Origin: a virus
Lineage: Duplodnaviria; Caudoviricetes
DNA length: 64,000 nucleotides
Reading direction: 5' to 3' (one strand)
IMG/VR virus record: IMGVR_UViG_3300037462_000487
Coordinates: 11,491-75,490 of that record
Part shown: positions 1,932 to 35,578 of the stretch, piece after piece
How the letters are laid out: every line of letters starts with the position of its first letter
Numbering within the stretch: the stretch's first letter is position 1
The notes under the pieces: generated by a model
Seen by the model: only the letters and a program-made list of their open reading frames with translations
Database searches by the model: none
Told to the model about the DNA's origin: nothing
Position numbers and translations under genes: made by a program

Positions 1932-2565
1932 CTCACTCGTCAACATGCTGGAACTCAGTACCGCCGACAAAATCATTGACCTGGCTTCGCAGGGGTTAAC
2001 ACTCCATCAGATTGCTACGCTGTTGAAGCTGGATCGGCGGCGCGTCAGCGAAGCCATTCAAACCTGGATGGCAGAAGTTCATACCGAATTACTCGACAAA
2101 GTAGAGACGCTGCATACCGTCGAACTGCAACGACTGGATTACATGTACAGCAAAGTAGCCCCTTATGCGTTTCCGCGTATTGATCCAGAGTTCCCGGAAG
2201 TTGAAATTCCGCCGGATCGCGGTATGCTGCAACTGCTCCTGAACATCATCAAAGAAAAACGTGAGTGGATCAAGCAGTTGCAGGAAGCGGAACGCAAAGC
2301 CAGAGAGCGCGGCACCATTTCCTTCGACAGCTTTGAAATTACCATGCACGGACATAATCCGCTGTATGAACGCGCCCGTGTAGAAATTGCCAGCGAAGCA
2401 GAAGCTAAGTCTTCGGCAGAACCGTCGGCTGCGGCGGATATGCCGGTAACTGATCTCTACACATCGTCAAAAGCGCAGTCTTTGCTGGCGGAAACTGAGA
2501 AAGAAATTAAACGAATTGGCTCCTATTACCCGGACAAACGGACGGGGGCAGACGATGACGACTAA
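1915..2565 (+). CDS. terS: Terminase small subunit (N-terminal HTH)
   Basis: HTH IIDLASQGLTLHQIATLLKLDRRRVSEAI, ELQRLD helix, directly upstream of and overlapping terL. Confidence 0.75.
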   Translation: MAKLANSLVNMLELSTADKIIDLASQGLTLHQIATLLKLDRRRVSEAIQTWMAEVHTELLDKVETLHTVELQRLDYMYSKVAPYAFPRIDPEFPEVEIPPDRGMLQLLLNIIKEKREWIKQLQEAERKARERGTISFDSFEITMHGHNPLYERARVEIASEAEAKSSAEPSAAADMPVTDLYTSSKAQSLLAETEKEIKRIGSYYPDKRTGADDDD

Positions 2566-4159
2566 ACCTAAAACCGGCGGCAAGGGCCGCCCTAAAAATT
2601 ATAATTACCTGGCGCAGGTACCCGTTACGCCCGAACAAAAAGAAGAACTGGCTGCCGCTGCTGCCGCTAAAAAGCAGTCGCTGCCTGCCGATGAAACTGC
2701 GCCGAAGGGGTTTGTCACGGTTGCCCGCGCGGAGCAGTGGCTGGTAGAAAAATCGCGGGAAGACTGCGCTACGTTTATTGAGTATGTCAGCGGCCGGACG
2801 CTGGCCCGTCATCACCGCATCTGGCTGGCAAACATCTTCCACCCGGAGCGCTCGCGCCTGAACTTTATTGCGCCGCGTGAATCGGCTAAATCTACCATCA
2901 TGATCTATGCTCTGGCCTGGGTGATTGCTAAAGCGCCGCTGCTGACTCATGCGGTAATTTCCGTTAGCGCGTCGCAGGCGGAAGATCGCTTACGCATGGT
3001 GCGCAGCATCCTGACTAGCGTCCGCTTCAAGAACGTCTTTCCCTGGATTGCTATCGACACTGCTTTTCCCGATACCCAGACACAACTCACGGTGTTGTCG
3101 CGGGAAAACAACATGCCGTACAACGTCTGGCGCTCGCAGGTGGCCCGTCTGGGTTCCCTCAAAGACCCGACGCTGCTGGTGAGTGGCAACGGTGGGCGAG
3201 GCATTATCGGTCGGCGTTTTAGCGGTCTTTTACTGCTGGATGACATCATTGACGAAACCTACCTGAAAGACGAATTGCAGGAAAAAGTCATGAAGTACAT
3301 CGTTCAGACGCTGCTCCCCTGCGTGCAGTCAACCGGCAAAGTCATCAACATTGGCACGCGCTGGATGTTGAACGATGTCCCGGAACGTCTCATCAACAAT
3401 CCTGCCTGGCACAGTGTCGTGATCCGGGCGCTGGAAACTGATCCGACGACTGGCGAATTATGTTCTTACTGGCCGGAATACTGGCCGGTAGACACGCTGC
3501 TCAAAAAGAAAGCTGAAATGGCAAATGATGCCCTCTTTCAGATTATGTACCAGAACGATCCGTCGGCGCTGACGGCTTCGCTGTTTACGCCGCAGTCGTT
3601 GAATCGTGATCTGCCGGAAGTGCTGCCGCCTCTCAAAGAAGTTTATATTTCAACCGACTTTGCCATTTCCCAGAAAACTTCCGCCGACTACACCGTCTAC
3701 GCGGCTCTGGGTACCGATACCGCCGGCAATCTGTATCTGCTGGATATGCTGCGTCTGAAGGCCAGCCCGGAAACGCTGGTCGAAGAACTGGGGCGTTTTT
3801 GTGATCGCATTGGAGCTACGTATCACCGCCTGACAGCAGTCTTAATCGAACAGGTAGGCTTTCAATCGCTGCTGCAATCTTATATTGGCAACTCACGCCC
3901 GGATTTGCCGCTGGTGCCTCACGTCCCCAAAGGCGATAAAATGCACCGGGCTAAATACCTCTCCGGTTTAGCGCAGGCGGGTAAGTTGTTCATTAACCAG
4001 AAAATCACTCTGATTGACTACCTCAAGTCGGAGTGGCTGAACTTTCCGCTGCATCGCCATGACGATACGCTGGATGCAGTCAGTCTGTTCTGTCAGTATC
4101 ATGGCGCAGGCGTTTCGGTACGCAGCGTCCGCCAGATCAAAAGTCCGTTTTTAATCTAG
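2555..4159 (+). CDS. terL: Terminase large subunit
   Basis: Walker A-like PRESAKST, Walker B LLLLDD, nuclease acidic motifs STDFAIS..ADYT and HDDTLDAVS; start moved to ATG 2555 (GGGGG RBS) from ORF-track 2516. Confidence 0.95.
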   Translation: MTTKPKTGGKGRPKNYNYLAQVPVTPEQKEELAAAAAAKKQSLPADETAPKGFVTVARAEQWLVEKSREDCATFIEYVSGRTLARHHRIWLANIFHPERSRLNFIAPRESAKSTIMIYALAWVIAKAPLLTHAVISVSASQAEDRLRMVRSILTSVRFKNVFPWIAIDTAFPDTQTQLTVLSRENNMPYNVWRSQVARLGSLKDPTLLVSGNGGRGIIGRRFSGLLLLDDIIDETYLKDELQEKVMKYIVQTLLPCVQSTGKVINIGTRWMLNDVPERLINNPAWHSVVIRALETDPTTGELCSYWPEYWPVDTLLKKKAEMANDALFQIMYQNDPSALTASLFTPQSLNRDLPEVLPPLKEVYISTDFAISQKTSADYTVYAALGTDTAGNLYLLDMLRLKASPETLVEELGRFCDRIGATYHRLTAVLIEQVGFQSLLQSYIGNSRPDLPLVPHVPKGDKMHRAKYLSGLAQAGKLFINQKITLIDYLKSEWLNFPLHRHDDTLDAVSLFCQYHGAGVSVRSVRQIKSPFLI

Positions 4160-4167
4160 GAGTACAC

Positions 4168-5142
4168 ATGTTCATTCTTCCGACTCACTTACCCGACTGG
4201 ATTCGCACCACCTACCACAACTATCTCAAACAGCCGCTGCCAGTCGAGCTGAACCCCGATCCCTATCAGGAACGGGCGGATTACGTTTCGTGCAGCAGCC
4301 TGGCACGCTGCCCGAAAGCGTATGCCATGACCAAGAAAAAAATCACACCACACCTGCCGGAACTGCTCGATGAACATAATCTGCCGGCGCTGATGCGGAT
4401 GTCGGGTGGCACCGAAGCCGGCAAAATTTTTGCCAGCGCTTTTCGCCTGGCTTATCCTGCCCATGCTCGTGCGGAAATGTATCTGGATCACCCGGAGCTT
4501 AAACTTCACGGGTTTTGCGATGTTGTCGTGACTGACGATGCCGGGCAGACGCTGGTGATCGAAGTCAAAAAACGCCCCGGCTATTTCAACACCCCGGCGC
4601 AGCCGCGGCTGAGTGACTGCTACCAGTTGCTGGCGTATGCCTGTATTCTGCGTCATCGGGGTATTACTCCGCGGCTGGCGCTGGTGCTGCTGGATGGTTC
4701 TGACTCGCTGCCGGTGCAGACACTGGAACTGTGTCCGGTAGACGGGGGTTATGAATTACGTAACTACTCGGTGCCGATCATTGACGACTTCTCCGGGGCA
4801 GTCATTTCCAGCTATACCCGGTGGGATTTTCCCCAAAATCACCCCGGACATCTGAACGAATATACCATTCAAGAAAAAATTCGCCTGGCTCATGACTGGC
4901 TTTCCCGTACTGACTACAGCGACACCCCGGTCGCTGATCCGCTGAATGATCGTTCCGGCATTGCCTATCAGTGTGTGCAGTGGCGTGATGGTCGCCGCCC
5001 GAAACCCAATAAAGTTAAACCCGTCGTGACAGCGGTGTGCGCTAACTGCCCCTTTTCCTGTCATTTTAATAATTCAATTACCAGTTATCCGGTAGTGATT
5101 ACGGCTGACGGTCACGCACAGTATCTTGACAAACCGAATTAA
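4168..5142 (+). CDS. Cas4-like PD-(D/E)XK exonuclease with probable Fe-S cysteines
   Basis: SCSSLARCP, GFCDVVV..LVIEVKK, YQLLAYA, C-terminal C..CANCPFSC. Confidence 0.8.
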   Translation: MFILPTHLPDWIRTTYHNYLKQPLPVELNPDPYQERADYVSCSSLARCPKAYAMTKKKITPHLPELLDEHNLPALMRMSGGTEAGKIFASAFRLAYPAHARAEMYLDHPELKLHGFCDVVVTDDAGQTLVIEVKKRPGYFNTPAQPRLSDCYQLLAYACILRHRGITPRLALVLLDGSDSLPVQTLELCPVDGGYELRNYSVPIIDDFSGAVISSYTRWDFPQNHPGHLNEYTIQEKIRLAHDWLSRTDYSDTPVADPLNDRSGIAYQCVQWRDGRRPKPNKVKPVVTAVCANCPFSCHFNNSITSYPVVITADGHAQYLDKPN

Positions 5143-5154
5143 GTATGTTATAAT
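5126..5154 (+). promoter_or_regulatory. sigma70 consensus promoter
   Basis: TTGACA-17-TATAAT, extended -10 (TATGTTATAAT, same as P1466). Confidence 0.88.
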
Positions 5155-5180
5155 TAACTCTGAAGTCAAAGGCATACTAC

Positions 5181-6041
5181 ATGGTCTCCGACGGCAGCAC
5201 AATTTCCCTGATCGAAACACTGGCAGCCATTGAGCAAGTCAGCACCTGGGGCTTGCTGGTGTTTGTTGTTGTTGGTGGATTGATGCTCGCGCGTCTCTAT
5301 TTTACTTCCCGCCGACAGGATGCGCAGGTGATCGGACAGTTTACCAGTCTGCAAACCGGGCTGGTGACTGCGTTGAACAACCAGTCGCAGCTAACCACCC
5401 ACACGGCACAGCAAATTAACGCTTCTGTCGCGGCGACGCAGGCATTGACGACGCAGATCACCGGCTTAACCGGGCAAATGGGAATGGTCAGCGAGAACTT
5501 GCAGGCAATTAAAGATAAAATGGCGCTGGATCGTAAAATGATGGCTGTTCAGTTAGAGCAGCTTCCGGCAGAATTAAACCGCGCGCTGATCGAAACTTTT
5601 GAACGTCACGACGAAGCGCAGACAAAACGCTTTATCGACGGTATTACGCATGTTATTAACAAAATTCCGCAGCACCTGACAGTCGGGGTAATGAGTGTTT
5701 CCCCGGAAGGTACGGTGTCCGCAGTCAATAACGAACTGCTGGCACTTACCGGCTTAACTCCCGATGTTGTTGGTCGCAATTTGTTCACCGACGGCGTGGT
5801 GCGAGTTGTAGACGAAGGGGGTAAACCGTTATTAGTCGCGCAATCCCCTTTTTCCGATTTACTTTCTGGCGACAAAAGCTCTTTGCAGCTTATTGCCGGC
5901 ATCATTCCACCCCACTCCGTCACGCAGGAGAAACGCTGGTTTCTGCTCAAAGCCGCTCCCGCCGTCACCATTCGTCCTTCTACCAATTCGCAAATTCTTA
6001 TCACTTTTACCGATATAGGTAAACTTATTCATGCCATCTAA
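5181..6041 (+). CDS. Membrane-anchored coiled-coil plus PAS domain protein with no output domain
   Basis: TM WGLLVFVVVGGLMLARLYF, Q/T-rich heptads, then PAS signature GVMSVSPEGTVSAVNNELLALTGL..VVGRN..RWFLLKAAP..ILITFTDI. Confidence 0.75.
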   Translation: MVSDGSTISLIETLAAIEQVSTWGLLVFVVVGGLMLARLYFTSRRQDAQVIGQFTSLQTGLVTALNNQSQLTTHTAQQINASVAATQALTTQITGLTGQMGMVSENLQAIKDKMALDRKMMAVQLEQLPAELNRALIETFERHDEAQTKRFIDGITHVINKIPQHLTVGVMSVSPEGTVSAVNNELLALTGLTPDVVGRNLFTDGVVRVVDEGGKPLLVAQSPFSDLLSGDKSSLQLIAGIIPPHSVTQEKRWFLLKAAPAVTIRPSTNSQILITFTDIGKLIHAI

Positions 6042-7788
6042 TACCAGCACTTACGCCGCCGATTACCTGAAGACTGCCGGATTAACCCCCGGCAGCAGCG
6101 TTGTTCGCCCTGCCGGCCCCGGTCAGGTGACGATTAACAACGTGCTGGAAACCGGGCGGCAAATCCGCGATCAGCAGCTCTGGCAGTTTAACATTCTGCC
6201 AGAAGCGGTACTGCTGTTTCAACAGTTGTCGTCGTCGCGGGAGTGGGCAGTTTCCGGTCGGCCGCGGCAGGCTGCTCGCACGGTAGAATGGCTTAACTCT
6301 GCTCGCTCGGTTGATCCGCAAAACGGTCAGACGTTTTACGGTTTTCAGCAGTATTTGCAGCGGCGGGCGCTCGATGCTGTTGTTGTTGGACGCACTGCCT
6401 TTTACTGCCCGCTTGGTGACGGTTATCTGGAATACCTTGATCCGACGGCTTTGCGTTTTGTCCGCGACAAACTCAGTTACGGCGCTAAAATTGAGTCACC
6501 CTCTCCCCGTGAATTTGTCTGGCAGTATTTTAATCACCGGGCTTTGCGGGCAGGTGAGGTTTTTCTGGATCATATGCTGCCGATTGGCACCAGCTACTTT
6601 CTACCGCCAATTGTCTCAGTGTTGAAGATAGCCCGGCTGGCCTGGCTGCTCACCGAACACGACAGCGCCAAACTGGATGGTCGTAAAATTCGGGAAATTT
6701 TCATTGTCTCTAACGAAGCTCTGGGCAGCGGCATTGAAGATGCTATTCTCAAGCAAGCCGCGATCTGGGCAGGAGCCGATGCTTCGCAGCTTGGCATTCC
6801 GGTTGTCAGCATCAACAATCCGTCGGGAACCAGTGTCGCTAATCTCATTCACACGATGGGTATCTCCAATCTGCCAGAAAACTTTGATCGGCAGGGTTTC
6901 ATTGATGCCTACGTTAACCAGATCGCGGCGGCTCTGGGTATGGCGCTGCGGCAGTTCTGGAACAACGAAAAGACGACTAACCGCGCTCTGGAAGAAGTGC
7001 AGGAGCAGCGTCAGCAGCAAAAAGGCCCCAACCTGTTTGTTAAGACGGAAGAAAAACTAATTAACAACTCTGGCATTCTGGATCGGTTTGGTACCGGGCG
7101 TTATCGGGTGCGGTTTGGGTTCATTGAAGAAACCGATCTGACCAGTCGTATTGCGAATGCCGATGTGCTGAAGAAAACCGCCGAAGCGCTGGCAACCGTC
7201 AACGCCGTCTTCAAGCAGACTATTTCGCTGGAATCGTACCTGGCCTGGATGCAAAATCTGAACATTCTCCCGTATGAACTGGAACTTAACGCGGTTGATA
7301 CGTCTAACTCCCCACATATTGTTCCTGAAGCCAGCACCGAAACCACGCCCGATGAAACCCGTGAAACCGGCAGCCCGGCGCTGTCGTCTTTTGACAATCT
7401 GGAAAAAATGATACGGGAACTGGAAGATGGCAACGTAGTTTTAAATCAACACGGTGAAGTATTGGATCGTCGCCGTAAACACTTCTCCGTTTTGCATATC
7501 CTGACGCAGATCGAAACCCTCGAACAAAGCCAGATTGAAGCTTTACCGGCTGACGAAGAAGCCTTTCAGGCGGCTTTAAAAGTGGCGAATGCCGCGGTTC
7601 GCGCTGCGTTTCGCGTCAATTATGAAGCTGCGCAGACTCAAATCACAGAATGGCGGCAGCACCAGATTCTGGTTTCTCCGACGACAATTGACAGCGCAAT
7701 CCGTAAGGCTCTGGCCGATGAAGAACTGCTGCCGGTAGAGCAGGATGTACTAGATGCTATGATGCGTTATTTGGAGTTAAACGTATGA
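6031..7788 (+). CDS. Portal protein
   Basis: 585 aa between terminase and protease; FQQYLQRRALDAVVVGRTAF helix and YVNQIAAALGM segment typical of portals. Confidence 0.75.
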   Translation: MPSNTSTYAADYLKTAGLTPGSSVVRPAGPGQVTINNVLETGRQIRDQQLWQFNILPEAVLLFQQLSSSREWAVSGRPRQAARTVEWLNSARSVDPQNGQTFYGFQQYLQRRALDAVVVGRTAFYCPLGDGYLEYLDPTALRFVRDKLSYGAKIESPSPREFVWQYFNHRALRAGEVFLDHMLPIGTSYFLPPIVSVLKIARLAWLLTEHDSAKLDGRKIREIFIVSNEALGSGIEDAILKQAAIWAGADASQLGIPVVSINNPSGTSVANLIHTMGISNLPENFDRQGFIDAYVNQIAAALGMALRQFWNNEKTTNRALEEVQEQRQQQKGPNLFVKTEEKLINNSGILDRFGTGRYRVRFGFIEETDLTSRIANADVLKKTAEALATVNAVFKQTISLESYLAWMQNLNILPYELELNAVDTSNSPHIVPEASTETTPDETRETGSPALSSFDNLEKMIRELEDGNVVLNQHGEVLDRRRKHFSVLHILTQIETLEQSQIEALPADEEAFQAALKVANAAVRAAFRVNYEAAQTQITEWRQHQILVSPTTIDSAIRKALADEELLPVEQDVLDAMMRYLELNV

Positions 7789-8795
7789 ACCTGACAACTC
7801 ATCTGATTGAAGCTAAAAATATGCAGCTTTACGCTTATTCGCTGCCTGCCAGAGAAGATCGGCTGTATTTTGTTGTTAAAGCCGCTTCGGTGGGGGCACC
7901 GGATAAGAAAGATTTGGGAGGCGACTATTACACCCCGGAAACGGATTGGGGAGATCGTTATGTCAAATCGGTTAATGTGTTTATCGACCACCTGCATAAC
8001 GATGAAACCAATCCGTACATCATGCCGGAACGTCAGCTTATCGGTGCCGCCCATTTGTTGGAAAAGGATGCCGCCTTTACTGCGTGGCTTCAGGAAATGG
8101 GTCTGTCGGAATCGGAAGCGCTGCATCGCTGGTATCTGGTTGAACTGGATAAAGCCAATCAGTATACGCTTTATCTGCAAAGACTGGCGAATGAAAAAAA
8201 GCTAGGGCTGAGTACGCAGGCTTATTTTAACTCAGTCAAACGTCAGGAAGATGGCCGGCTGGATAGCTGGTATATTAACGAGATTACGTTTACGGTGTCG
8301 CCTATGGATGCGACGACGGTAGGGCATGTCTATCAGATTGCTAAATCACTGGGTATTGAGTTTCAAAAGAAAGGGCATCTTATGGCAGATGAACAGAACG
8401 TTGAAGTGGCGGTGGCAGCGGAAGTGACGACTGTTGTGCCGCCGTCGCTGGAAGCGGAAATTACCGAAATTCTGGCGGCTCCGCCGGAACCGACTCTGGA
8501 AAGTACTATTGCCAACGCGGCTGAGCTGCGAGCGCAGATTGAAGCGCTGCGCGCAGAACTGAAAACCAGCGTTAACGCGCTGAGTGAAGCCCTGACGGCA
8601 ATCAGCGTGTCTACCAATGACATTCGTAAGGGTGTGACGCTGTTTGCTGAGCAGGTTGCCAAACGCCTGCAAGTGAAAACCATTGAAGCTGCCAAAGAAG
8701 CTGCTCTGGTTGAAAAAGAAGCCGTTCAGGAAGTTAAAAGCACTGCTAAAGGGTTTACTGCCACTTATTTTCCGCCTAACGCCCCCGGCGCTTAA
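7785..8795 (+). CDS. Prohead protease fused to coiled-coil scaffold
   Basis: DLGGDYYT, FIDH (His), LGLSTQA (Ser), EITFTVSPMD; C-terminal heptad repeats. Confidence 0.75.
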   Translation: MNLTTHLIEAKNMQLYAYSLPAREDRLYFVVKAASVGAPDKKDLGGDYYTPETDWGDRYVKSVNVFIDHLHNDETNPYIMPERQLIGAAHLLEKDAAFTAWLQEMGLSESEALHRWYLVELDKANQYTLYLQRLANEKKLGLSTQAYFNSVKRQEDGRLDSWYINEITFTVSPMDATTVGHVYQIAKSLGIEFQKKGHLMADEQNVEVAVAAEVTTVVPPSLEAEITEILAAPPEPTLESTIANAAELRAQIEALRAELKTSVNALSEALTAISVSTNDIRKGVTLFAEQVAKRLQVKTIEAAKEAALVEKEAVQEVKSTAKGFTATYFPPNAPGA

Positions 8796-8812
8796 CTCAA
8801 AAGGATACTGCT

Positions 8813-10243
8813 ATGGTTGGAAAGCTGATTCACGAACTCAATACGCAAACCGGGGGTGATGCGGTTAACAATGACGCAATTGCCCGCTATCTGAAAGACA
8901 CCATGCCGGCAGGCGGTCGCGCTGCCAGCGGGTACCTGTACGACGGTAACTCGCCGTTTGGAATTTACCCTAACGATCCGATCTCGCTGGTTGTCAGCGG
9001 TGGTTCCCCGCTGATGAACTGGATTCCTACGCGCTACATCAATGATCGGTTTGAGTATATCTCCCATCTGGAATGGGTTGCTCCCGAAGGTTTTGACGGT
9101 TCCCAGACGTATGCTGAGTATCTGGCTTCAGTCGATATGGATGACTGCGGCGGCGGCCCGGCGACGGATTGGAACGGCTTTACCTACCGGGTAAGCGGCG
9201 GACGTTTCCGCTGGCAGACTAAGATGATGAAGCCGTACCTGGACGGCGGTATGAAATACTATGAACAGCAGCCGATCTACACGATCCGCGGTTCCAACAT
9301 CGGGCAGCCGCTGGCTTCAGATCGGGAATGGGCGATTGCCCGGCTGTTTATGGTGATGCAGTCTCACTATGACTATGTGCTGAAAAGCGGTGAACGCGCC
9401 AACAGCAACATGGAGTGGGATGGCATTAAGACGGTGCTGGTGCCGGGTTATGTGCAGAACAATCTGGTTGGGCGTGGTACCCCCCACTGGGCCGACCCGA
9501 TGATTATCAACGGGCTGGCGATTAACAATGTGGCGGCGCTGCTTCAGGCGATCCGTCGGCTGGTGCGTCGCGCGATCAAGCGGCTGCGGATGCGTCAGTG
9601 GATCGTGCTGCCGGGAGACATTGCTATCTGGATGCCGGCGACGATGTGGGATCAGCTTGCCGAACACGTGGCTGCCGGTGGTATGTACAAGTACACCAAT
9701 GCTTACGGCTTCAACGGCGATATGTCGGCTGGCGACTTTATGCGGGCGCTCGAACAGACTCGCAGCGGTGGCTTTGGGTTTGGCAACATCGTAGTCGATG
9801 GTATTACGGTGCCGGTGATTGCTGACGACACGATTGGTATGAACGTCACGATTGATCCGTCAGGTACGCCGAAACCCGGTATTGCCGGCGATGTGTCGGT
9901 GCTGGTGCGGCGGGCTAACGGTATGACGCTGCTCGAACAGCAGATCGTTGACTGGACGAAGCTCACTTACCCGACGAATGGCCTGGAAAACATCGTGCAG
10001 ATGCCGCAGGGTCATGTTCGCGCCGGGTGGGTCACAGAAGCCAACAACTGCTACTACTACTATGCGGAAATGGCCGGGCGGTTTGTCAGCTACATGCAGC
10101 CGCTTCAGGGTGTGATCCGTAACGTGGTGATCGAAACGCTGGATGCGGCTGAAAATGAAGCCGGCACCTTCACCAGCCCTGACTTCTACCCGTATCGTGG
10201 TGTGGGTGGTGGTCGTGGTACTTCCCTGTTGACGGGCAGCTAA
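8813..10243 (+). CDS. Major capsid protein (HK97 fold presumed)
   Basis: 476 aa after protease/scaffold, strong RBS, strongly biased codon use, 3' hairpin. Confidence 0.8.
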   Translation: MVGKLIHELNTQTGGDAVNNDAIARYLKDTMPAGGRAASGYLYDGNSPFGIYPNDPISLVVSGGSPLMNWIPTRYINDRFEYISHLEWVAPEGFDGSQTYAEYLASVDMDDCGGGPATDWNGFTYRVSGGRFRWQTKMMKPYLDGGMKYYEQQPIYTIRGSNIGQPLASDREWAIARLFMVMQSHYDYVLKSGERANSNMEWDGIKTVLVPGYVQNNLVGRGTPHWADPMIINGLAINNVAALLQAIRRLVRRAIKRLRMRQWIVLPGDIAIWMPATMWDQLAEHVAAGGMYKYTNAYGFNGDMSAGDFMRALEQTRSGGFGFGNIVVDGITVPVIADDTIGMNVTIDPSGTPKPGIAGDVSVLVRRANGMTLLEQQIVDWTKLTYPTNGLENIVQMPQGHVRAGWVTEANNCYYYYAEMAGRFVSYMQPLQGVIRNVVIETLDAAENEAGTFTSPDFYPYRGVGGGRGTSLLTGS

Positions 10244-10257
10244 AGATACAGTATAAT
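10229..10257 (+). promoter_or_regulatory. sigma70 promoter overlapping the end of the capsid gene
   Basis: TTGACG-17-TATAAT. Confidence 0.7.
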
Positions 10258-10283
10258 GGGGAAAGTTAACTTTCCCCATTATA
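10252..10283. repeat. Perfect 32-bp palindrome (terminator, mRNA stabiliser or operator)
   Basis: TATAATGGGGAAAGTT|AACTTTCCCCATTATA. Confidence 0.9.
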
Positions 10284-11469: not shown

Positions 11470-11750
11470 TGCCCTGTACTAAATGCAGAACGTCGGTGCG
11501 GCGCGAAACTGTGCCGACGTTCATCGTTAACGACTCCGGCGACAACGATACACTAAGTCGCAAATATGCTGAAGTGCAGTTCAATCGAACTGTGGCAGTA
11601 AATTATTGTGGTGTGTACCGTCTCTTTCAGTCGTCGGAAGTTGTTAATCTACCTTACCCGTTGATTCGCACGCTGCTAGATATGCCGACCAGCCCGATTA
11701 TGTTTCGCTCAATCAATGAACGCTTTGTGTTTGAGGCGGCGTATGCTTGA
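11469..11750 (+). CDS. Small hypothetical protein with N-terminal CxxC
   Basis: MPCTKC start overlaps the upstream stop codon. Confidence 0.7.
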   Translation: MPCTKCRTSVRRETVPTFIVNDSGDNDTLSRKYAEVQFNRTVAVNYCGVYRLFQSSEVVNLPYPLIRTLLDMPTSPIMFRSINERFVFEAAYA

Positions 11751-12165
11751 ACTGGCATTTTTTGCCAATGTCTTGACTGTTTATTATCTGGTTGCCTGCC
11801 TGCGATTTGATGCAGCGATGACGCAGCCGTTTGTTAATTATCGGCGTGAAGTGCAGCAATTTTTAGTGTCTACTAACGATGCTGGTGATGTTATTACTGA
11901 AGTTATCACCTATCACCCCGGATTGTTTGATCGTATTCGTTTTCTCTTTGGCTTATATCGTGTTTCTCCCGACAATTCCCACGTCTGGGTAGTAAGGAAT
12001 GAACGTTTACCGGTCTGGGAATGCCCTAAATGCCTGTCTTTCTGGGTAGCTGTCGTGACGGCGGCTTTAACCGCTTCGCTGCTTAATAACCTGGTGTTTC
12101 TGCTGTTAATTATCCCGATTGCCGGTGGCAGCACCCTCTTACACGCAATTGACTATTCGGATTAA
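11743..12165 (+). CDS. DUF1360-like membrane protein
   Basis: Hydrophobic N- and C-termini, GLFDRIR and ECPKCLSFWVA motifs; start refined to ATG 11743. Confidence 0.7.
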   Translation: MLELAFFANVLTVYYLVACLRFDAAMTQPFVNYRREVQQFLVSTNDAGDVITEVITYHPGLFDRIRFLFGLYRVSPDNSHVWVVRNERLPVWECPKCLSFWVAVVTAALTASLLNNLVFLLLIIPIAGGSTLLHAIDYSD

Positions 12166-12177
12166 ATATGGTATAAT
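12149..12177 (+). promoter_or_regulatory. sigma70 promoter
   Basis: TTGACT-17-TATAAT, extended -10 TG. Confidence 0.8.
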
Positions 12178-15303: not shown

Positions 15304-15332
15304 AAAGGCACTCTTGACAGAGTGCCTTTTTT
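15304..15332 (+). terminator. Intrinsic terminator after the tail tube gene
   Basis: AAAGGCACTC-TTGACA-GAGTGCCTTT followed by TTT. Confidence 0.85.
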
Positions 15333-15342
15333 GTGTTATACT
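15314..15342 (+). promoter_or_regulatory. sigma70 promoter whose -35 box is the terminator loop
   Basis: TTGACA-17-TATACT with extended -10 TG. Confidence 0.75.
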
Positions 15343-17110: not shown

Positions 17111-20100
17111 ATGGCGGATGTTAGAATTGCCACCGGCTTACCCGACGATCTGGTTAACAGTTTAAATGCGCTGTCAACTACTCTGACGGCAATTGATTCA
17201 CAGCTTACGAAAAACATTGCGCATATGAAGGCAGTCAACGCTGCCTTTACCAACAGCAATTCAGTTAAAAACTTAATTGACAGCCTGAAACAATTTACTA
17301 AAGTTGAAACTGATCCGATTAAAACCGTCAGTGCAGTTTTACTGGAATTATTTGAATCGCTGAAGAAAGTCAATGCTCTTTCCGGGCCAGTCAAAAACAG
17401 CATTAACGCAATGGCTTCCTTTATGCGGGCGCTGGCGCTGGTTGCCAAGCATCTCGAACAGCTAAAAACAACCGATGCAGCCGGATCACTGACAGTTGTG
17501 TCTACCATTGTTACCGGCTTGTCGCAGTTTATTAGAGGTATTGAAGCGCTGGATTTTAGCAAAATAAAACCGCTGCGCTCTACCATTAATGCTGTTTCGG
17601 ATATTGTCAATGCGATTGTTCGGGTAATGGTAACGCAGGTAACTGAATTAAAAACAAACAATCTGCCGCTTTTAATTGAATCTTTTGGTGCACTTATTCA
17701 GGCGTTTTCTAATAAAATAACCATTGATAAACGTGTTTTTAATGCGTTTGCCGGACTTAAAAAATTACAAGACATTGACTTTAGCAAAACAATTGACTCA
17801 ATAAATCGTATGGTAACTCAGTTGTTAACACTGGATCAAAAAATTCCTGCAACGCTAGATACAAAAAACTTAAAAAACAAGTTAAAAAGTATTATTCCGA
17901 CTATTATTTGGGTCTCGCGCAGCTTTTTTAATTTTAGTAAACAGTTGACTGGTTCTCGCTTATCTATAAAAACACAGGAAATTTTAAAGAATTTTTTTGA
18001 AATAACTAAAGCAGTTACAAGGGTGTTTAGCACTATTGCAAATTTACAAAATGTAATGAATAGTCTTAAAAGTGTAACTAAAGTAAATACCTACGGTTTG
18101 TCTGATTTTATCAAATCGCTGGCAGACAATAAAGATACCAGTTTACTCGGTATTTTTAAAAATGCTGGAAAAAGTTTTGCTTCTTTTTCACTTTCCAGTT
18201 TAAACAAAATTTTTACGTCAAAATTTGTTGAGCTTGTGCCTATTTTTGAGGCTTTAAAATATATTTTTAACGAAATAGGTAAATTGATGGGGGGTGTAAC
18301 TAACTTTAAAGGCATAGAAAAGTTACATGAAATTGCAACAGCAGTTGCCTCTCTGGTAAAAACAGTACCTTTATATTTACAATTATCACGATCTAAAGAA
18401 ATTACCCCCGGTATCCTGGCTCAATTGTCACGTCGATTTAGGATTTTGCCGCGACTTTTTGGCGTTATTCGGCAAATTGTGTTTTCATTTGCCCGTATGA
18501 CAGGTCGAGCTATCGACATACGTGGTATGGAAAATTTACCTAAAATTGCCGAAGCTATTCAAGCGCTGGTAAAAGCGGTTCCCGTGTTGTTAAAAACCAT
18601 AAAATCAGATATAGGCCCTGGCCCAATTAACTTTGCAGTTAGATCAATGCTTTTAATTCCCCGACTTATGGGTGTTATCCGCCAGGTTGTGCGGGGTATT
18701 GCTCGCATTGTTGGTAAAAGCCTTGACATTGAAGGCATTAAAAGCTTACCCGCTATTGCGCAGGCTGTAGCCAGGGTGGTAAGAACAGTACCGCTGGTGA
18801 TTTCGGCTGCTCGACAGCTAAACCCAGGCCCTATTGGATACGCCAAAAGAACGTTGTTGCAAATACCACGTTTTTTTGGAGTTTTTTCTCAGATAACTAA
18901 ATCTTTAAACAAAGTAACCGGGCGAGTGACTGATCTAGAAAAAACCAAAGCTGTTGTTAATTTGGTAAAAGATATTGTTGCTTTAACTCGTCTGGCTTCG
19001 GTAGAAAACGCGACTATCGGGGATTTTCGTAATTTTCAGAGAGCCACTAAAGAGATAGTTAATTCCCTTGATGCTATTAATCGGGTACGCATAGACCAAA
19101 GTACTGCCTTAACGGTTAAACATATAGAAATTTTACAACAAAAACTTAAACAAACTGAACACAGTCAAATTAGCCTGGCCGAAACTTCTGAAGTATCAAT
19201 GACACGACTCAACAGAGCATTTGTAGTGCTGGCAGACAATTCTCCCCTTTTAGCGGTGCTGGCAACGTATAGTTTAAAACTAGTTGGCTTAAAAAAGCAA
19301 GTTTTAGAAACAATGCGAGTTGTTGGCAACTCGCTGCGTCAGATGGGTGAAGATATTGTTACAGCCTCTCAAACCATTTTTAATAACTTTTCTATTAACA
19401 AAATTATCAATTCTAGCGGAGCAGCCGAAGCCTTAGAATTTGACGATATTCGGCAACAAATTAAAGTATTTGCATCCGAACTGACAACTCAACTTCCAGC
19501 GGTAGAAGAATTTGCTAATTTTATTGGGCAAAAATACCCTCTGTCTTCTAACGAAGCGTTGCAGGCTACACTTGAACTGGCAAAAGCCGGACAAAGCTTT
19601 GCGGCTATTAAGAATATTTTACCCAATGCGGCAGACTTAGCTGGATTGAGCGAAACCAAAGATTTAAAAACCAGCACCAACTTCTTAATTGCCGCCGCCG
19701 GGCAATACAAACAGTTTAGTGAAACAGTTGCCGGTGGCTTTCAAAATTCAGCGTTTGCGGCTGATGCTGTGTTTAATGCAGCTAACATGTCTACCGCGGG
19801 GATTAACTCCCTGATGGAAGGTTTGACGCGAGTTGGGCCGGCAGCTAACAACTTCGGAGCGTCTTTGGATGAAGTTGTTATTACCCTGAGTCGTTTAGAA
19901 GATGCGGGTATTCGCGGCAGCGATGCCGGTACCGCTTTACGCGCGGTATTCACCGGAATTAGCAATGCAAAAGGGCAGAAAGAGCTTAAAAGACTAGGCG
20001 TAGCTTTCCAAAACGTCGATGGCTCTATTCGTAACTTAGGCGATATTATTGCCGACGTTCAACGGCGATACAAAGAATTAGGCTATTCACAGGCAGATAT

Positions 20101-23100
20101 TTTAAAGTCTACTTCGCAATTTGGTGACGAACTTGCTCGTACCGGGTTCAATATTTTACGCAACTCTAAAGATATAACGCAGGGAGTAACTGAATTAAAC
20201 GCAGCTATTGCTGGTGGCAGCACCGCAAGCATTGCTATGACTAACGTAATGAGTTCGCTTAAAGGCATTATTGAACAAATTCGTGGTTCTGTTTCTACCC
20301 TGTTAACTAAAGTATTTTTGCCAATTTTTGACCGGTTTGTTAAACCCCTTGCTACGGCAGTTCTGGCGCTTGTTAACAGCTTACTGGAACTTCCCGACAG
20401 CGTACTGGAAACGGTTGGGTTCTTTATTGCCTTTGCTGCGGCAGCGGCAACGTTGCTGGCAACTTTGATGCTAGTCGTCGGTGCAATTACTACGCTTTCA
20501 GGCTTTGTATTAAGTGCAGCCGGAACAATTGGTTTGTTAATGAGTAATCTTTACTTAATGGCGGGATCATTGTTTGGTTTATTTTCCTCAGTTATCATCT
20601 TGATACCTGTTCTTACTACCTTAATCACTGTGTTTACGGGATTAAGCTATTCTGTAACTCGTGTTTTTCGCTTAATCGAAGACGCAACAACGCATTCAAA
20701 TAAATCTTTTATTGCGTTTCAAACAGCAGTTAGTACGACATTCAGTGAATTACAAAGAATCTTTAAACTGGTACAGGCTGTGTTTATTGCTTTTGTGCGT
20801 TCTATGACTGAATTTAATTCAACAACGCAGGATTTACAGTTAGCCGGAGTTTTTGATCGAGTTACCAACTCAATTACTAACTTAAACAATAATCTTAAAA
20901 AAATTGACTTAAATACTGTTGTTAATGCTGTAAAACAATTATCAATTTATCTTAAACCCCTGTTCTCCGGGGCAGCTAACGCTGGCGCAGGGCTTTTTTC
21001 CATTATTCTGGGTGACTTTGAGGGGGGTGTACAAACATTAGAAAAAGGGCTTTCTTCAATTGGCTTAGCGTTCTCGCGTTTTTTGTCAGACTTTGCCGGA
21101 TTTGACTTAACTAAAGCGTTAATTTACTTTGAAAGTAACGATCTGAACAAGGGTGTACAATTCTTTGTAGAAGAATTTTTAGGGTCTATTCGTAATGCTA
21201 TTGACAATAATGCTGAAGCACTAACAGCAGTTGGTGCCAAAATTCTTAATTTTTTTAATCCGCTGAAAAGTTTTTCCCAGTTAACCGGGCTTCTGGGGTT
21301 TAACAATTTAAGTTTGCAGTTAAATGAACTGGCAGTTAATGTTGAAAACGGATTCCGCGTTATTATCTCTGTAATTATTGAATTTATCCGTGGCACTAAA
21401 GATGCCAGCGAAATTTTAGGCACCTTTTTTGGCAGCATTGGTACCGCTGTTGGTAATCTATTAGAAGCACTGTATGGCATTGCTGTCTCGATTGGCGATG
21501 TTTTTACTTCTATTTTTAGCGTATTCAACCGCGGCATTGCTACCACACCAGAGCAACAGGCAAGTGTAGAAGAAACAGTTAACTGGTATGACGGCATTGT
21601 AAAAATTATTGATAATGTGACTGGTGTTTTAAACACACTTAATACTGACGTTATTCAGGTTTTTGCTCGCAATGTGCCTTTGATTTTAAATAAAGTAGCT
21701 ACCTTTATTCAGGGAATATTAGACTACTTTTCTACGGCTATTAACAGTATCCCGGTAATACTGGGTGTTGTTGTTAATTTTTTAAAACAACTTGTTGGGG
21801 TGTTTAGCGGAGAAATTAATATATCGCAGGCTATTAATGACTTTTTGACTAATTTACAAATTTCTTTGTCTTCGATTAGCTTAATTTTAGGTGCGTTTTT
21901 CGAGCGACTTGGGGTAGATATACAAAGCAACACTATTTATATGCTGTCAAAAGCTTTTAATGAACAAGACTTTGGGCAAATAATTCTTAAAGTTCTGCTA
22001 TTTGTCCCAGAACTCTTGTACGAAGGATTTAGCAAAGTCTTTGACGAACTGCTTAAATTGTTCCCCAACCGCATTGCCGGAGCAATTGCTATTGCGAGTA
22101 TTGCAGTGTTAGCAGGAGCGGTTAGCATCCTTGCCTTCAACACTCTGCCGTTAATCGTTACCAGCGCAGTCGGTATTTTACAATCACTGCTGCTTCCTCC
22201 CATCACTGCACTCGGTAGACTATTGGGTTTTACTCTGGCGGGGAGTATTCCAACTGGCTTTTTGGTAGCGGCGGCGGCTGTTGTCGGTGTGTTGGGGGTA
22301 GCAATTGCTGCACTTGTCAATTCTGCAATCAGCGGCCCCACCAAAAACATCATCGAAAGGGCCGGAAAAACAGCGGGAACTACTTTTACCAATGCCGCGG
22401 AAGCTGAAGCTAAAAAATTTAAAACCAAATTTACGGGTATTGTTGAAGATGCTATGACTTCAAGCGAAGTTCTTGCTCAACAACGCAATCCGGTAAACAT
22501 CTTAAACGCACTGCTCCCCGCGGATAACATGATAACGCAATTTACCAGCCGCTTAAGCGATGTTATTGCCGTTGTTAAAGGTGTGTTAGAGCAGGTTCTG
22601 AATCAAATTTTTGGAGAAGGTACATTTTTTATTAAACCCTTTATTGCTGTTCTCGAACTCCCTTTTAACGCAATTGCAGCCGCTATATCCTTAATTATTC
22701 CTTTAATAAAAAATCTGATATTGTTTATCGTGCAGGCGTTACAGGTTGTTACCGCAATTGTTAATCAACTCATTAAAATCGGGTTAGGTGTTATTTCGGG
22801 TGTTTTTAAAACAATTGAAATAGCAATCAAGACTGTTACCGGATTGCTCATTAGTTTACCGCAGCCTGTAAAAGATGCAGCGTTAGCTTTTACGCTGCTG
22901 GCTGCTGCCATTAAGCTGGTAGGCAAATCAGTCAATACGGCTGGCGGCATGTTTAAAGCAAGCGCAATCTTAATAATTTTCCAGGCGTTTGTGTCGCTGC
23001 TGCGTGGCTTAGATGATATGTTTAAAAATGGGTTAATTAGTGGTATCCTCACTTTCTTTGAAGATTTTACCGGCGCATTACTCAATTTCTTCTCCCCGAT

Positions 23101-25779: not shown

Positions 25780-26208
25780 ATGGCAGTAATCAAAGATTAT
25801 TTTCCAATGCTGGCTGCCGGTGAAAACAATGCTTTGCAGCTAAAACCGCTGCATCACTGGCAGCCACCAGCATTTGAATTGTATGAAAATTACATTGATG
25901 CTGTCTGGTATACCAGCGAAACGCAGGAAGAAAGTGGTAAAAAACGCACCGTGCCGGTGGGTTTGCCGTATGTCATCTGGCGCTTTCCGGCGCTGACGCA
26001 AAAGGAATTTCAATTGCTAAAGACTACTCTGGGAATGACTTCGCAGCGAGACGCACTCTGTACGCTGCGAGCGTTTGATCCGTACTCAGCTATCTGGGGC
26101 AACTACAACGCAGTGTTTAAAATGCCTGACGACATCGGGCAAAAGTATAATGGCTATGAATGGCGCGAACTGGAATTTCGGTTTCTTGACTTACGGATCA
26201 TTCCTTGA
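25780..26208 (+). CDS. Putative distal tail protein
   Basis: Directly after the TMP, 142 aa, aromatic and beta-rich. Confidence 0.55.
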   Translation: MAVIKDYFPMLAAGENNALQLKPLHHWQPPAFELYENYIDAVWYTSETQEESGKKRTVPVGLPYVIWRFPALTQKEFQLLKTTLGMTSQRDALCTLRAFDPYSAIWGNYNAVFKMPDDIGQKYNGYEWRELEFRFLDLRIIP

Positions 26209-26233
26209 CAAAAATACCTGGCTGTGCTATAAT
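26205..26233 (+). promoter_or_regulatory. sigma70 consensus promoter for tail tip genes
   Basis: TTGACA-17-TATAAT with extended -10 TG. Confidence 0.85.
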
Positions 26234-32262: not shown

Positions 32263-33545
32263 TGTCAGCTAACCTTAAAATCTTTCAAACGCATATTCGG
32301 TTTCCACACCGCAGTACCACACCGGCAACGCCGCCGGCAACTACCAGTCTGGTGTACGTCAAAACAGATGGGCGGTTGTATCGTCTGGGTTCTGATGGTA
32401 TCGAAACTGATGTGGCTACTACCCTGGCGGATACCGGCGTAGTACCTGGCAGTTACGAATCAGCCGATGTTACCGTCAACGCTAAAGGGCAAATTACTGC
32501 AATCAGTGATGCGCCTGACAGCGGTGTGACTCCCGGCAGCTACACAGCCGCCAATATTACCGTTGACCCCAAAGGACGAATTACGGTTGCCAGTTCTAAC
32601 GTTGCCGTGCCGGCTTTTCCTACTGGCGTTCCGGGCACCTATATCTGCCCGCTGCTAACGCTAGATACTCACGGCAAAGTAACCGCTATTGAAAGTGGTT
32701 ATTATGTTAATCCGGCTATTAATGATTTACGAATGGATAGCAGTATCAATTATGATCCTAATGCAATGTTGAATACCACCGATAACTCTGTTATGCGCTT
32801 AACGTTCTGGCGTGGCAACACCATTGCCTTAAGTCAGCTTACCGAAACCAACTATAAACTGTATCAGTTATCGACGCAGCCGATTATCAGTCTGGGAACT
32901 CTGCCGGTAGGGGTATACGATGTGTTTGTCTATGCCAGCGGCAGTACTCTGGTAGCTGAATTTATCGCCTGGTCTACGCTGACTTCTCGCGCTACCGCAC
33001 TGGAATGGTACCCGACTCTGGGAATTTACGGTACACCGTCGTCAAATCGTAAAAAATACATTGGTTCTATCTATTTAAATGTCGGTCAAACTCACGGCAC
33101 CTTTACCCGCTGGAATTATTTTAATCGCCTGACGCTGCATCAGCGTATTTTAGAAACAACCGCAAGCTGGACTTACGCCACAAGTGCCTGGCGACAGGTG
33201 CGAGCAAGTGGAGCTAACTTAATTAGCCTCTTAATCGGCATGAACAACGTGCCGATCACACTCAATGCCACGCTGTATGCACAGGGGGCGGCAAGTCTGG
33301 CAACTAACATTGGGTTCTCCACCACCGCACCGCTGTCAGGTTCGCTGGCGCTTCTGGGAGGAACTTCCGGGGCAGCAACTACGCAGGCAAAATGCGAAGT
33401 TCAGGGGAACTTTCACAGCCATACCAGTACCGACACCGTTGGTTTTCTGACGTTTTACTGGCTGGAACGCGGCAACACCAGTGGTACCTTTTTAGGTACC
33501 AGCGTCTTGCTGCAATCAGGTATGGAGATTACCTATGAAGGTTAA
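32262..33545 (+). CDS. Tail fibre protein
   Basis: Three repeats G.Y..(V/L)T(V/L)(N/D).(K/H)G..T at 32430-32695, typical of fibre shafts; beta-rich C-terminal domain. Confidence 0.8.
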   Translation: MSANLKIFQTHIRFPHRSTTPATPPATTSLVYVKTDGRLYRLGSDGIETDVATTLADTGVVPGSYESADVTVNAKGQITAISDAPDSGVTPGSYTAANITVDPKGRITVASSNVAVPAFPTGVPGTYICPLLTLDTHGKVTAIESGYYVNPAINDLRMDSSINYDPNAMLNTTDNSVMRLTFWRGNTIALSQLTETNYKLYQLSTQPIISLGTLPVGVYDVFVYASGSTLVAEFIAWSTLTSRATALEWYPTLGIYGTPSSNRKKYIGSIYLNVGQTHGTFTRWNYFNRLTLHQRILETTASWTYATSAWRQVRASGANLISLLIGMNNVPITLNATLYAQGAASLATNIGFSTTAPLSGSLALLGGTSGAATTQAKCEVQGNFHSHTSTDTVGFLTFYWLERGNTSGTFLGTSVLLQSGMEITYEG

Positions 33546-34071
33546 TGTCAGCAAATTTGAACGCGAGTTACGGGCGGCGGGCATTCCGTTAGAGGGTGTT
33601 GACTCTGACGGTACAGTATGGTATACTAATGAAGTTACCGAAGCACAGCGAGAAACTGCGGCAGCGATTTTACGCGATCACAATCCGCTGACACCTCACC
33701 CCGATGATGTGGTGCTAGCGCAAACCGTACAAGCGCTGCAAACTGCTCTGCAAAGTGCGGAAAACATGATAGGTATGCTGCCGTATTATGATATGTTGCA
33801 GCGCGAGCAGCGCAAAGCCGTGGTTCATCGCAAAGACATCGTAACCCATTATCAGGATTTTTTAAATCAGGTTAATCAGGAACCAAAAGGATATGCTGAT
33901 TTTCTGCACACGTTATATTTGTGTACTGGCCTGCGGGAAGACGATTTAACACCAGAACTGCCAGTAGAAAAAATGCATGAAGTAATTTTTGTTGGAATGC
34001 TCTATACCGGCTTTGGAGCTTTCAGTGCAATTGTACCGGCTTTCCTCATTATGTTAAAAAACAGGAGTTAA
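33535..34071 (+). CDS. Putative tail fibre assembly protein
   Basis: Directly after the fibre; ELRAAG..VTEAQRETAAAILRDH pattern. Confidence 0.5.
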   Translation: MKVNVSKFERELRAAGIPLEGVDSDGTVWYTNEVTEAQRETAAAILRDHNPLTPHPDDVVLAQTVQALQTALQSAENMIGMLPYYDMLQREQRKAVVHRKDIVTHYQDFLNQVNQEPKGYADFLHTLYLCTGLREDDLTPELPVEKMHEVIFVGMLYTGFGAFSAIVPAFLIMLKNRS

Positions 34072-34072
34072 T

Positions 34073-35188: not shown

Positions 35189-35206
35189 CTAAATAAGGAG
35201 TTAACT

Positions 35207-35578
35207 ATGTGGGATCAAACGGATTTTGTGGTGCTGGTGGTTGCCGGTGGCGCAATTGTCATGGCAATTATGGCAATCTGGCAGAGTCGGCCGGAAAAGA
35301 TTGTCGCGGCAGTGCAGCGAATCACCGAGTCGCCGGAAACAATGGCCCGGCTGGAAAACAGTTATAATCAGCTTACTCCCCGTGAGCAGGCGCTGATTAA
35401 CACCGTGACTACAGCAATGACGTTTCTGTACAACAGTGTGCCCAGTAATTCGACGTATCACAAACCCTTTCAGGAAAGCCTGGAACTGTTGCAAGAAATT
35501 ACCGATAAACTTCCGGCAGTGGAAAAACCGATGCCGGTGTCTGACCCGGTAGTGGAACCCGCTGGCTCAGATAAGTAA
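35207..35578 (+). CDS. Single-TM membrane protein, holin-like
   Basis: N-terminal TM FVVLVVAGGAIVMAIMAIW, AAGGAG RBS, last gene of the late unit. Confidence 0.55.
   Translation: MWDQTDFVVLVVAGGAIVMAIMAIWQSRPEKIVAAVQRITESPETMARLENSYNQLTPREQALINTVTTAMTFLYNSVPSNSTYHKPFQESLELLQEITDKLPAVEKPMPVSDPVVEPAGSDK

Follow-up and report, generated by a model that had tools for sequence, protein, structure and literature searches.

The stretch of DNA analysed here (the window; 64,000 nucleotides, nt) covers positions 11491-75490 of a 75,490-bp IMG/VR virus record of an uncultured phage and carries, directly before a candidate portal gene, a gene for a protein of 286 amino acids (aa) in which a transmembrane (TM) helix, a predicted helical stalk and a PAS domain follow one another. 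The C-terminal domain of this protein, referred to as the PAS protein (P0001), is a genuine PAS domain of the Pfam clan PAS_Fold (PF00989, PF13426, PF08448), as confirmed by sequence and predicted fold, and its gene is strongly predicted to be the first cistron of a PAS-portal-scaffold-capsid unit headed by a consensus promoter. No intracellular sensor module is more common in bacteria than the PAS domain, and what is new here is a PAS domain in a new architecture and context. With regard to function, a LysF1b-like regulator of lysis timing with a cytoplasmic sensor is favoured by analogy, at a probability of roughly 0.35, and a tether or chaperone for the portal at the inner membrane ranks close behind. 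The parts of the gene and its product are the following.

5181-6041, + strand: PAS gene (P0001), ATG start, encoding the membrane-anchored coiled-coil PAS protein of 286 aa
5250-5306, + strand: single TM helix, aa 24-42 (Kyte-Doolittle 1.97), with RR directly after it
5313-5660, + strand: helical stalk or coiled coil, aa 45-160 (~115 aa), Q/T/A-rich, with predicted long helices and heptad periodicity
5661-6038, + strand: PAS domain forming the C-terminus (aa ~161-286), lacking Cys and followed by no output domain, from sequence similarity and predicted fold

Direct scans of the PAS protein against Pfam and NCBIfam gave only sub-threshold matches (PAS_9, PAS, sensory_box and PYP; E ~0.1), all of them at aa 164-204. 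A phmmer search of 1.8 billion representatives returned two full-length homologues, P0002 (E 6e-30) and P0003 (E 7e-25), and 17 further proteins which matched mostly at aa ~160-285 with E values from 1.8e-7 to 1e-3; the eight matches that were checked, kinases and GGDEF proteins, all carry Pfam PAS domains. With BLASTP, aa 164-285 were aligned at 33% identity (E 2e-14) with P0009, a PAS-only protein of 150 aa that matches PAS_9 with 43.6 bits. A preliminary description of this DNA, prepared before any database search, had proposed a profile search with PAS_4 and PAS_9; the window protein itself stays below threshold in such scans, but its homologue from locus L021 exceeds the Pfam cut-offs for PAS_9 and PAS, and the homologue P0013 exceeds that for PAS. 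When the family profile was compared with the Protein Data Bank (PDB), mostly PAS proteins were found, plus some coiled-coil chains.

The PAS fold is defined by a five-stranded antiparallel β-sheet with flanking helices (Aβ, Bβ, Cα, Dα, Eα, Fα, Gβ, Hβ and Iβ). Modelling of aa 150-286 by AlphaFold2 from a nine-row alignment, which included two bona fide PAS proteins, gave strands and helices in this canonical order with a predicted local distance difference test (pLDDT) of 80.4 and a predicted template modelling score of 0.73, and in the single-sequence AlphaFold model the C-terminal domain had a pLDDT of ~35 and no usable fold. Foldseek returned 184 PDB matches at E<=1e-3, and all of the chains listed either are PAS domains or belong to proteins that contain one. 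Superposition by VIA-align on PYP, short LOV proteins, a PAS-GGDEF-EAL protein and ARNT PAS-B gave Z scores of 11-12.6 over 95-109 residues, with a root-mean-square deviation of 2.0-3.2 Å. Structure prediction had been named beforehand as the check on the fold, and phmmer, BLASTP, the Pfam matches of the relatives and the AlphaFold2, Foldseek and VIA-align comparisons all agree with the complete C-terminal PAS domain that the preliminary description had reported.

The PAS domains of sensor kinases and GGDEF/EAL proteins (PAS, PAS_4, PAS_9) have the same fold as the window protein and show sequence similarity to it over the whole domain, and PYP and short LOV proteins are output-less as it is. 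Unlike the kinase, PYP and LOV types, the window protein has an N-terminal TM anchor and a long stalk and is encoded by a phage before a portal candidate, and it differs from PYP, LOV and FixL in having neither Cys nor cofactor motif and in falling itself below the Pfam cut-offs. As there is no Cys anywhere in the protein and no His on the predicted Fα helix, cofactor chemistry of the LOV, PYP or FixL kind is unlikely; a bound cofactor or ligand is, however, optional for members of the PAS superfamily. The nearest cellular PAS domains are 23-34% identical, their named sources being Chloroflexales, Spirochaetota and Heliobacterium.

The N-terminal 23 residues of the PAS protein are short and acidic, with a net charge of -3, and from the charge bias and the positive-inside rule an N-out/C-in topology is strongly predicted, which would place the stalk and the PAS domain in the cytoplasm. 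The same charge pattern, and with it the same predicted topology, is present in 8/8 family members. Within aa 45-160 hydrophobic periodicity peaks at 3.5 residues, and single-sequence AlphaFold predicts helices at aa 7-43, 48-124, 129-140 and 145-161, with pLDDT values of 65-77 for the stalk; the coiled-coil stalk is probably dimeric. Both the TM helix and the coiled coil of ~130 aa claimed at the outset were recovered, the former at aa 24-42 and the latter as the predicted stalk of ~115 aa.

No match to HAMP, DHp (HisKA) or HATPase_c was found for the PAS protein in Pfam or NCBIfam, and the half comprising TM helix and stalk has no similarity to kinases. In line with the earlier observation of an output-less protein, no kinase, GGDEF or DNA-binding part was detected, and the PAS domain ends at the stop codon. 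The 1758 nt that come after this stop constitute a conserved gene for 585 aa with 77 homologues, leaving no room for the frameshifted output domain that would have marked a host-gene remnant. The possibility that the protein is the front half or a remnant of a sensor histidine kinase was rejected because HAMP, DHp and HATPase_c are missing and no frameshifted remains lie downstream.

The PAS protein had been described as an orphan, which proved incorrect, as seven relatives (P0002, P0003, P0013 and the products of loci L006, L010, L019 and L021) and a fixed place in five loci were found. Scans with the portal alignment gave 21 loci, and the place of the PAS gene was judged in the five PAS loci with DNA, namely the window and four relatives, whose PAS gene homologues are listed here.

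L006, 3057-3881
L010, 449-1456 (= P0098)
L019, 6795/6909-7928
L021, 7144-7902

At each of these four loci a homologue with TM helix, coiled coil and PAS domain lies directly upstream of a portal candidate, and adjacency or overlap with the portal candidate is seen in 5/5 PAS loci over a portal divergence reaching down to 40% identity. The junction consists of a 4-nt ATGA overlap in L006 and L021 and of a 9-nt gap in L019; the open reading frame (ORF) calls overlap in L010, where the homologue and its portal gene bear consecutive NCBI locus tags. A gene without PAS at the same site in L003 overlaps the portal candidate by 11 nt. A hidden Markov model (HMM) built from N-terminal halves recognises the loci L006, L010, L019 and L021, and therefore the whole protein is orthologous, not the PAS part alone. 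The two closest homologues of the portal candidate are found on contigs of 8154 and 29014 bp, which are also the sizes of the contigs of P0003 and P0002, and this equality of size (29014/8154 bp) is the one link of P0002 and P0003 to a portal gene.

Among GenBank phages no match was obtained by megablast with window positions 2500-8800 or by tblastn with the PAS protein, P0013, the L021 homologue or the portal candidate, and P0009 gave only matches with E>=0.05, in unannotated records. PAS-gene loci were not found in viral contigs (queries P0001, P0002, P0003 and P0013) or in metagenome contigs (family alignment), and a word-indexed profile search with another alignment returned P0001 and P0098 only. 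The lineage is known only from metagenomes. One contig with a portal 38% identical (L025; CAYPQF010000032.1, 84,291 bp) was binned in an uncultured gammaproteobacterial metagenome-assembled genome, which is a weak hint on the host range of the lineage.

The gene order around the PAS gene, with the signals that belong to it, is given below.

1915-2565, + strand: gene for a small helix-turn-helix protein, first in order before TerL
2516-4159, + strand: large terminase subunit (TerL; phrog_38, E 1.6e-63)
4168-5142, + strand: Cas4-like PD-(D/E)XK nuclease, 324 aa (phrog_1706, E 1.9e-8; TIGR00372 cas4, E 1.3e-6; PADLOC Cas4, E 1.9e-8)
5126-5154, + strand: sigma-70 consensus promoter, with TTGACA at 5126-5131, a 17-nt spacer, TG at 5146-5147 and TATAAT at 5149-5154
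5168-5172, + strand: Shine-Dalgarno-like AAAGG, 8 nt before the ATG of the PAS gene, read from the sequence
6031-6041, + strand: 11-nt overlap of PAS gene and portal candidate, with the PAS stop TAA at 6039-6041 and the ATG of the portal candidate at 6031
6031-7788, + strand: portal candidate, 585 aa, after TerL and before scaffold-like and capsid-like genes, called from its size and 77 homologues
Downstream of the portal candidate (region 6031-10243), + strand: scaffold-like gene (336 aa), then capsid candidate (476 aa)

The overlap of the PAS stop with the portal start, noticed earlier, is thus seen as 11 shared nucleotides, the portal being a candidate only. The placement between terminase and portal that had been proposed is correct in so far as TerL (~25% identical to TerL of known phages) lies upstream and the portal candidate is the next gene, but the Cas4-like gene intervenes after TerL. 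The label 'portal' rests on gene order, size and the 77 homologues, all of which come from metagenomes or viral contigs. The portal candidate matched no Pfam, PHROG or PDB profile, Pfam scans of 28 of its homologues gave no match either, and no match to the post-TerL proteins of phages XM1 and RS51pmB was found by hhalign. For the scaffold-like and capsid candidates there was no Pfam or PHROG match.

The promoter at 5126-5154 matches the consensus at 12/12 positions and has an extended -10 element in addition; the stop codon of the Cas4-like gene (5140-5142) falls inside its spacer. No terminator was found between the PAS gene and the next genes, and therefore this promoter serves the whole head unit and not the PAS gene alone. 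The preliminary description had assigned the PAS gene a perfect promoter of its own, and it is the perfection that held, whereas the site turned out to be one of seven and to serve the whole unit. Near-consensus promoters (<=1 mismatch, 17-nt spacer) number 7 in the window as compared with 0.34 expected by chance, and TG precedes the -10 element in 4/7 of them.

1466-1494, 5126-5154, 10229-10257, 12149-12177, 15314-15342 and 26205-26233, + strand: near-consensus sites
62002-62030, - strand: near-consensus site

A sigma-70-like promoter is located 25-65 nt upstream of the PAS gene in 5/5 loci (window, L006, L010, L019 and L021). Ranked by agreement with the consensus, the five promoters have 12/12, 11/12, 10/12, 10/12 and 9/12 matches, and TG is present in four. 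Several of the promoters at 1466, 5126, 10229, 12149, 15314 and 26205 visibly stand at the start of gene blocks in the structural region, and the late genes of the phage seem to be transcribed by host RNA polymerase in its unmodified form. At 10229-10283, after the capsid gene, the -10 element TATAAT is one arm of a hairpin with a 14-bp stem, TATAATGGGGAAAG-TTAA-CTTTCCCCATTATA, and the same bases serve a terminator-like structure and a promoter.

The PAS gene is accessory in the lineage, because a complete relative of 82.5 kb (G002) has no PAS homologue anywhere in its genome; another complete relative of 73.7 kb (G003) has one. A portal tree joins the window to the two PAS carriers closest to it (support 98/99); elsewhere in the tree, loci with and without PAS are interleaved. 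The slot before the portal is occupied in further relatives by PAS-less single-pass proteins, likewise predicted to be N-out/C-in, of 142 aa (L003/L004), 196-198 aa (L005 and L007/L008), 174 aa (L009), 136 aa (L012), 106 aa (L014) and 111 aa (L025), and nothing comparable was found there in L002, L011 and L013. None of these PAS-less proteins was recognised by the HMM built from the N-terminal halves of PAS carriers. Pairwise shuffling tests firmly linked only L012 with L014 and L007 with L005; the weaker pairs L012-L007 and L007-L022 (z ~4.5) may reflect coiled-coil composition, and the comparison of the window protein P0100 with L012 and L014 was not significant (z ~2). A single conserved core of TM helix and coiled coil, to which PAS may or may not be added, was therefore discarded as an explanation; what the slot proteins share is architecture and position only.

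Between TerL and portal, many relatives encode a conserved protein of 310-371 aa that has four TM helices and a helical tail in the cytoplasm (L002 701-1816, L003 2950-3993, L006 1684-2730, L019 5082-6053 and L021 4353-5285). It is absent from the genome of the window and gave no family match when the L003 protein was scanned.

LysF1b (Girr gp35 / NormanBulbieJr gp33) is a holin-like protein with a single TM domain and N-out/C-in topology which is needed for efficient lysis in F1-cluster mycobacteriophages (PMC13056207). The PAS protein resembles it in its single N-terminal TM domain, predicted from charge bias to be N-out/C-in, and in being a late phage product, and in some relatives the single-pass slot protein is paired with a multi-TM protein. 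It differs from LysF1b in that its gene is located outside a lysis cassette, between the Cas4-like gene and the portal candidate, and in that it carries a PAS domain. The predicted topology of the PAS protein is unlike that of classical holins or spanins.

In the reading that is favoured here, the PAS protein would be an accessory late membrane regulator. Its PAS domain would respond to a cue within the cell, which may come from a ligand, from a partner protein or from the redox or energy state, and would pass it on through the stalk so that the association of the TM helix with other membrane proteins is altered. What it would most likely control is when the membrane is permeabilised and the cell lysed, on the pattern of LysF1b. 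The holin- or antiholin-like protein with ligand-gated timing that the preliminary description had suggested is in this form viable and the leading proposal, the predicted N-out/C-in topology being like that of LysF1b, but no lysis gene is adjacent in the window.

This regulator of lysis timing is consistent with several observations on the slot and on gene order. The slot holds single-pass proteins in relatives that mostly show no detectable homology to each other, that is, its occupants turn over rapidly, and fast turnover of accessory genes is typical of lysis or host-interface genes. The late operon of lambda and of P22 opens with the lysis genes, closely followed by those for packaging and the head. 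By a hydropathy scan, the partner of the single-pass gene in L003, L007/L008 and L009 encodes a protein of 2-5 TM helices. The interval between TerL and portal in L009 (4975-7986; = G002) encodes a ClpP-type head-maturation protease, a 3-TM protein, a single-pass coiled-coil protein and a protein of 403 aa with a NEP motif, for which the nearest ESM-Atlas models are TIM-barrel glycosidases, including phage clusters, a similarity to be taken as a lead only. This interval looks like a lysis-like cassette within a head module, and a setting comparable to that of LysF1b is offered only by the non-homologous slot protein of L009, which lies between the 3-TM and the glycosidase-like protein. As to further links with lysis, members of Phage_lysozyme (PF00959) or Glyco_hydro_cc (PF11790) were not found in five genomes of the lineage, and searches with P0099 and the 403-aa protein of L009 revealed no lysis-gene homology across relatives.

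A number of points weigh against control of lysis timing. In the window, L006, L019 and L021 the PAS gene has no holin-like or endolysin-like neighbour, and a separate lysis-like trio at window positions 33535-35578 has an N-out single-pass protein of its own. The tight translational coupling to the portal candidate fits a role in head assembly better. No homology of the PAS protein to a holin, an antiholin or a LysF1b-type protein was shown, with PHROGs giving nothing, and PAS domains often act as mere dimerisation modules, the sensing role proposed here being inferred.

The trio stands at the end of the late unit, and its proteins have 178 aa (C-terminal TM helix), 371 aa (N-terminal coiled coil) and 123 aa (single-pass, N-out). 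It is a candidate lysis trio, and no family match was found for it. A 3-TM protein of 149 aa is encoded elsewhere in the window (11716-12165), and two further membrane proteins of the window are located here.

P0101, 33535-34071
P0100, 35207-35578

Next in rank, and tentative, is the proposal that the PAS protein, made in step with the portal, is a membrane tether or chaperone that, by its cytoplasmic stalk and PAS domain, keeps portal subunits or the nascent initiation complex attached to the inner membrane. The PAS domain would in that case serve for binding or dimerisation, perhaps under the control of the host's state, following the logic of T4 gp40 with gp20. Assembly of the T4 portal gp20 takes place at the inner membrane and involves gp40, a chaperone of the phage, and YidC of the host (PMC9958956, PMC4493910). 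Like gp40, the PAS protein would be a phage membrane protein tied to the portal, the tie here being genetic (overlapping genes and conserved adjacency), whereas no homology to gp40 was detected among PHROGs and gp40 has no PAS domain. In T4, gene 40 is not adjacent to gene 20. A precedent for the build is p16.7 of phi29, with TM helix, coiled coil and C-terminal functional domain, which anchors replication to the membrane. The adjacency to or overlap with the portal candidate in every PAS locus, down to 40% portal identity, the missing terminator between the two genes and the presence of another single-pass, cytoplasm-facing protein in the same slot of related phages all argue for a tether. 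However, the slot is empty in some relatives (L002, L011 and L013), its occupants have no detectable homology to each other, and G002 is without any PAS, although conservation would be expected of a core assembly factor. Moreover, neither a Pfam match to a head-assembly family nor a PHROG with head-assembly annotation at E<=0.1 was obtained, and the identity of the portal is positional only.

A somewhat less probable proposal is a sensor checkpoint, in which an output-less, membrane-anchored cytoplasmic PAS sensor co-translated with the portal would make a late membrane-linked step, be it lysis or the start of capsid assembly at the membrane, depend on redox, energy or metabolite conditions inside the host. 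To our knowledge, sensory control of morphogenesis or lysis of this type has not been described for any studied phage.

It is unlikely that the PAS protein has some other accessory membrane function without sensing, such as superinfection exclusion, membrane remodelling or an envelope-spanning role in ejection or of the spanin kind, with the PAS domain serving oligomerisation only. Expression from a strong promoter of host type would need no phage factors, the gene has a patchy, accessory distribution in the lineage, and the lack of Cys and of an Fα His, by which LOV, PYP or FixL-type chemistry is unlikely, also fits such a role. On the other hand, its spanin version fails on topology and for want of a lipoprotein partner, PADLOC gave no match for the PAS protein, and a cytoplasmic PAS domain plus stalk is not the build of any exclusion protein that we know of. 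An i-spanin of the Rz type, which is N-in/C-out with a periplasmic coiled coil, was rejected in that the predicted topology is the opposite and the PAS domain is of a cytoplasmic type, and no ORF with a lipobox that could encode an o-spanin partner was found on the + strand within or after the PAS gene. A class III holin was also rejected, on predicted topology.

Least probable by far is the decoy or heterodimerising inhibitor of the preliminary description, an output-less PAS protein that pairs with the PAS domain of a host sensor kinase or diguanylate cyclase and silences or hijacks its pathway. In its favour are the type of the domain (cytoplasmic, kinase/GGDEF), the known ability of PAS domains to heterodimerise, one of the best structural matches being ARNT/HIF PAS-B, and phage peptides reported to bind a host diguanylate cyclase (PMC8085984). 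However, the proposal found no support, given a TM-stalk half without HAMP, DHp or kinase similarity, best cellular PAS matches that are only 23-34% identical and come from unrelated phyla, a composition equal to that of neighbouring genes, and a fixed place before the portal candidate that argues for a role in the phage's own late programme. The PAS gene has the G+C content, overall and at third codon positions, of its neighbours, and therefore shows no sign of recent capture from a host kinase.

VqmA-Phage of vibriophage VP882, a soluble transcription factor with PAS and DNA-binding parts, controls a lysis-lysogeny switch (PMC8284805). The PAS protein is like VqmA-Phage in being a phage-encoded PAS protein that may be used to read a chemical cue, and differs from it in having no DNA-binding part and in its predicted location in the membrane. 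The nearest ESM-Atlas clusters are viral, with proteins of 187-234 aa and up to 1142 members, and BFVD/UniProt contains several short phage PAS proteins (for example R9ZZL0 and A0A6J5KZZ3), two of them from Cellulophaga phages. Like the window protein, these proteins of uncultured Caudovirales and Cellulophaga phages are short, output-less and phage-borne, the match to them being by fold or language-model features only. Output-less short PAS proteins are evidently common in uncultured Caudovirales and are uncharacterised. The soluble VqmA-Phage is the only studied case of a phage PAS protein that we know of. In the literature searched, no PAS protein with a membrane anchor is described for the head or lysis modules of phages, which fits the earlier remark that PAS proteins are unfamiliar in head modules, but short PAS proteins as such are frequent in uncultured Caudovirales.

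An output-less PAS protein that is tethered in the membrane and keeps its place at the head of a portal-capsid operon would mean that either a late step of the phage, be it lysis timing or the start of head assembly, listens to host physiology, or a PAS domain has been recruited as a structural adaptor at the membrane, and either answer would be new biology. The gene is short and easy to clone, and as its promoters resemble sigma-70 sites of E. coli, tests of expression, topology, cofactor and interaction are simple. The value of the finding is tempered by its function being inferred, by the accessory nature of the gene and by the wide distribution of output-less PAS proteins in uncultured phages.

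No counterpart of the Cas4-like nuclease (4168-5142) was found by BLAST in the loci of relatives, where other genes mostly fill the interval between TerL and portal. This nuclease, situated between TerL and the PAS gene, has a Cys cluster, CANCPFSC, at its C-terminus. An ORF of 2887 aa is present at window positions 17111-25774, and its DNA has 38-44% G+C compared with ~50% for the window.

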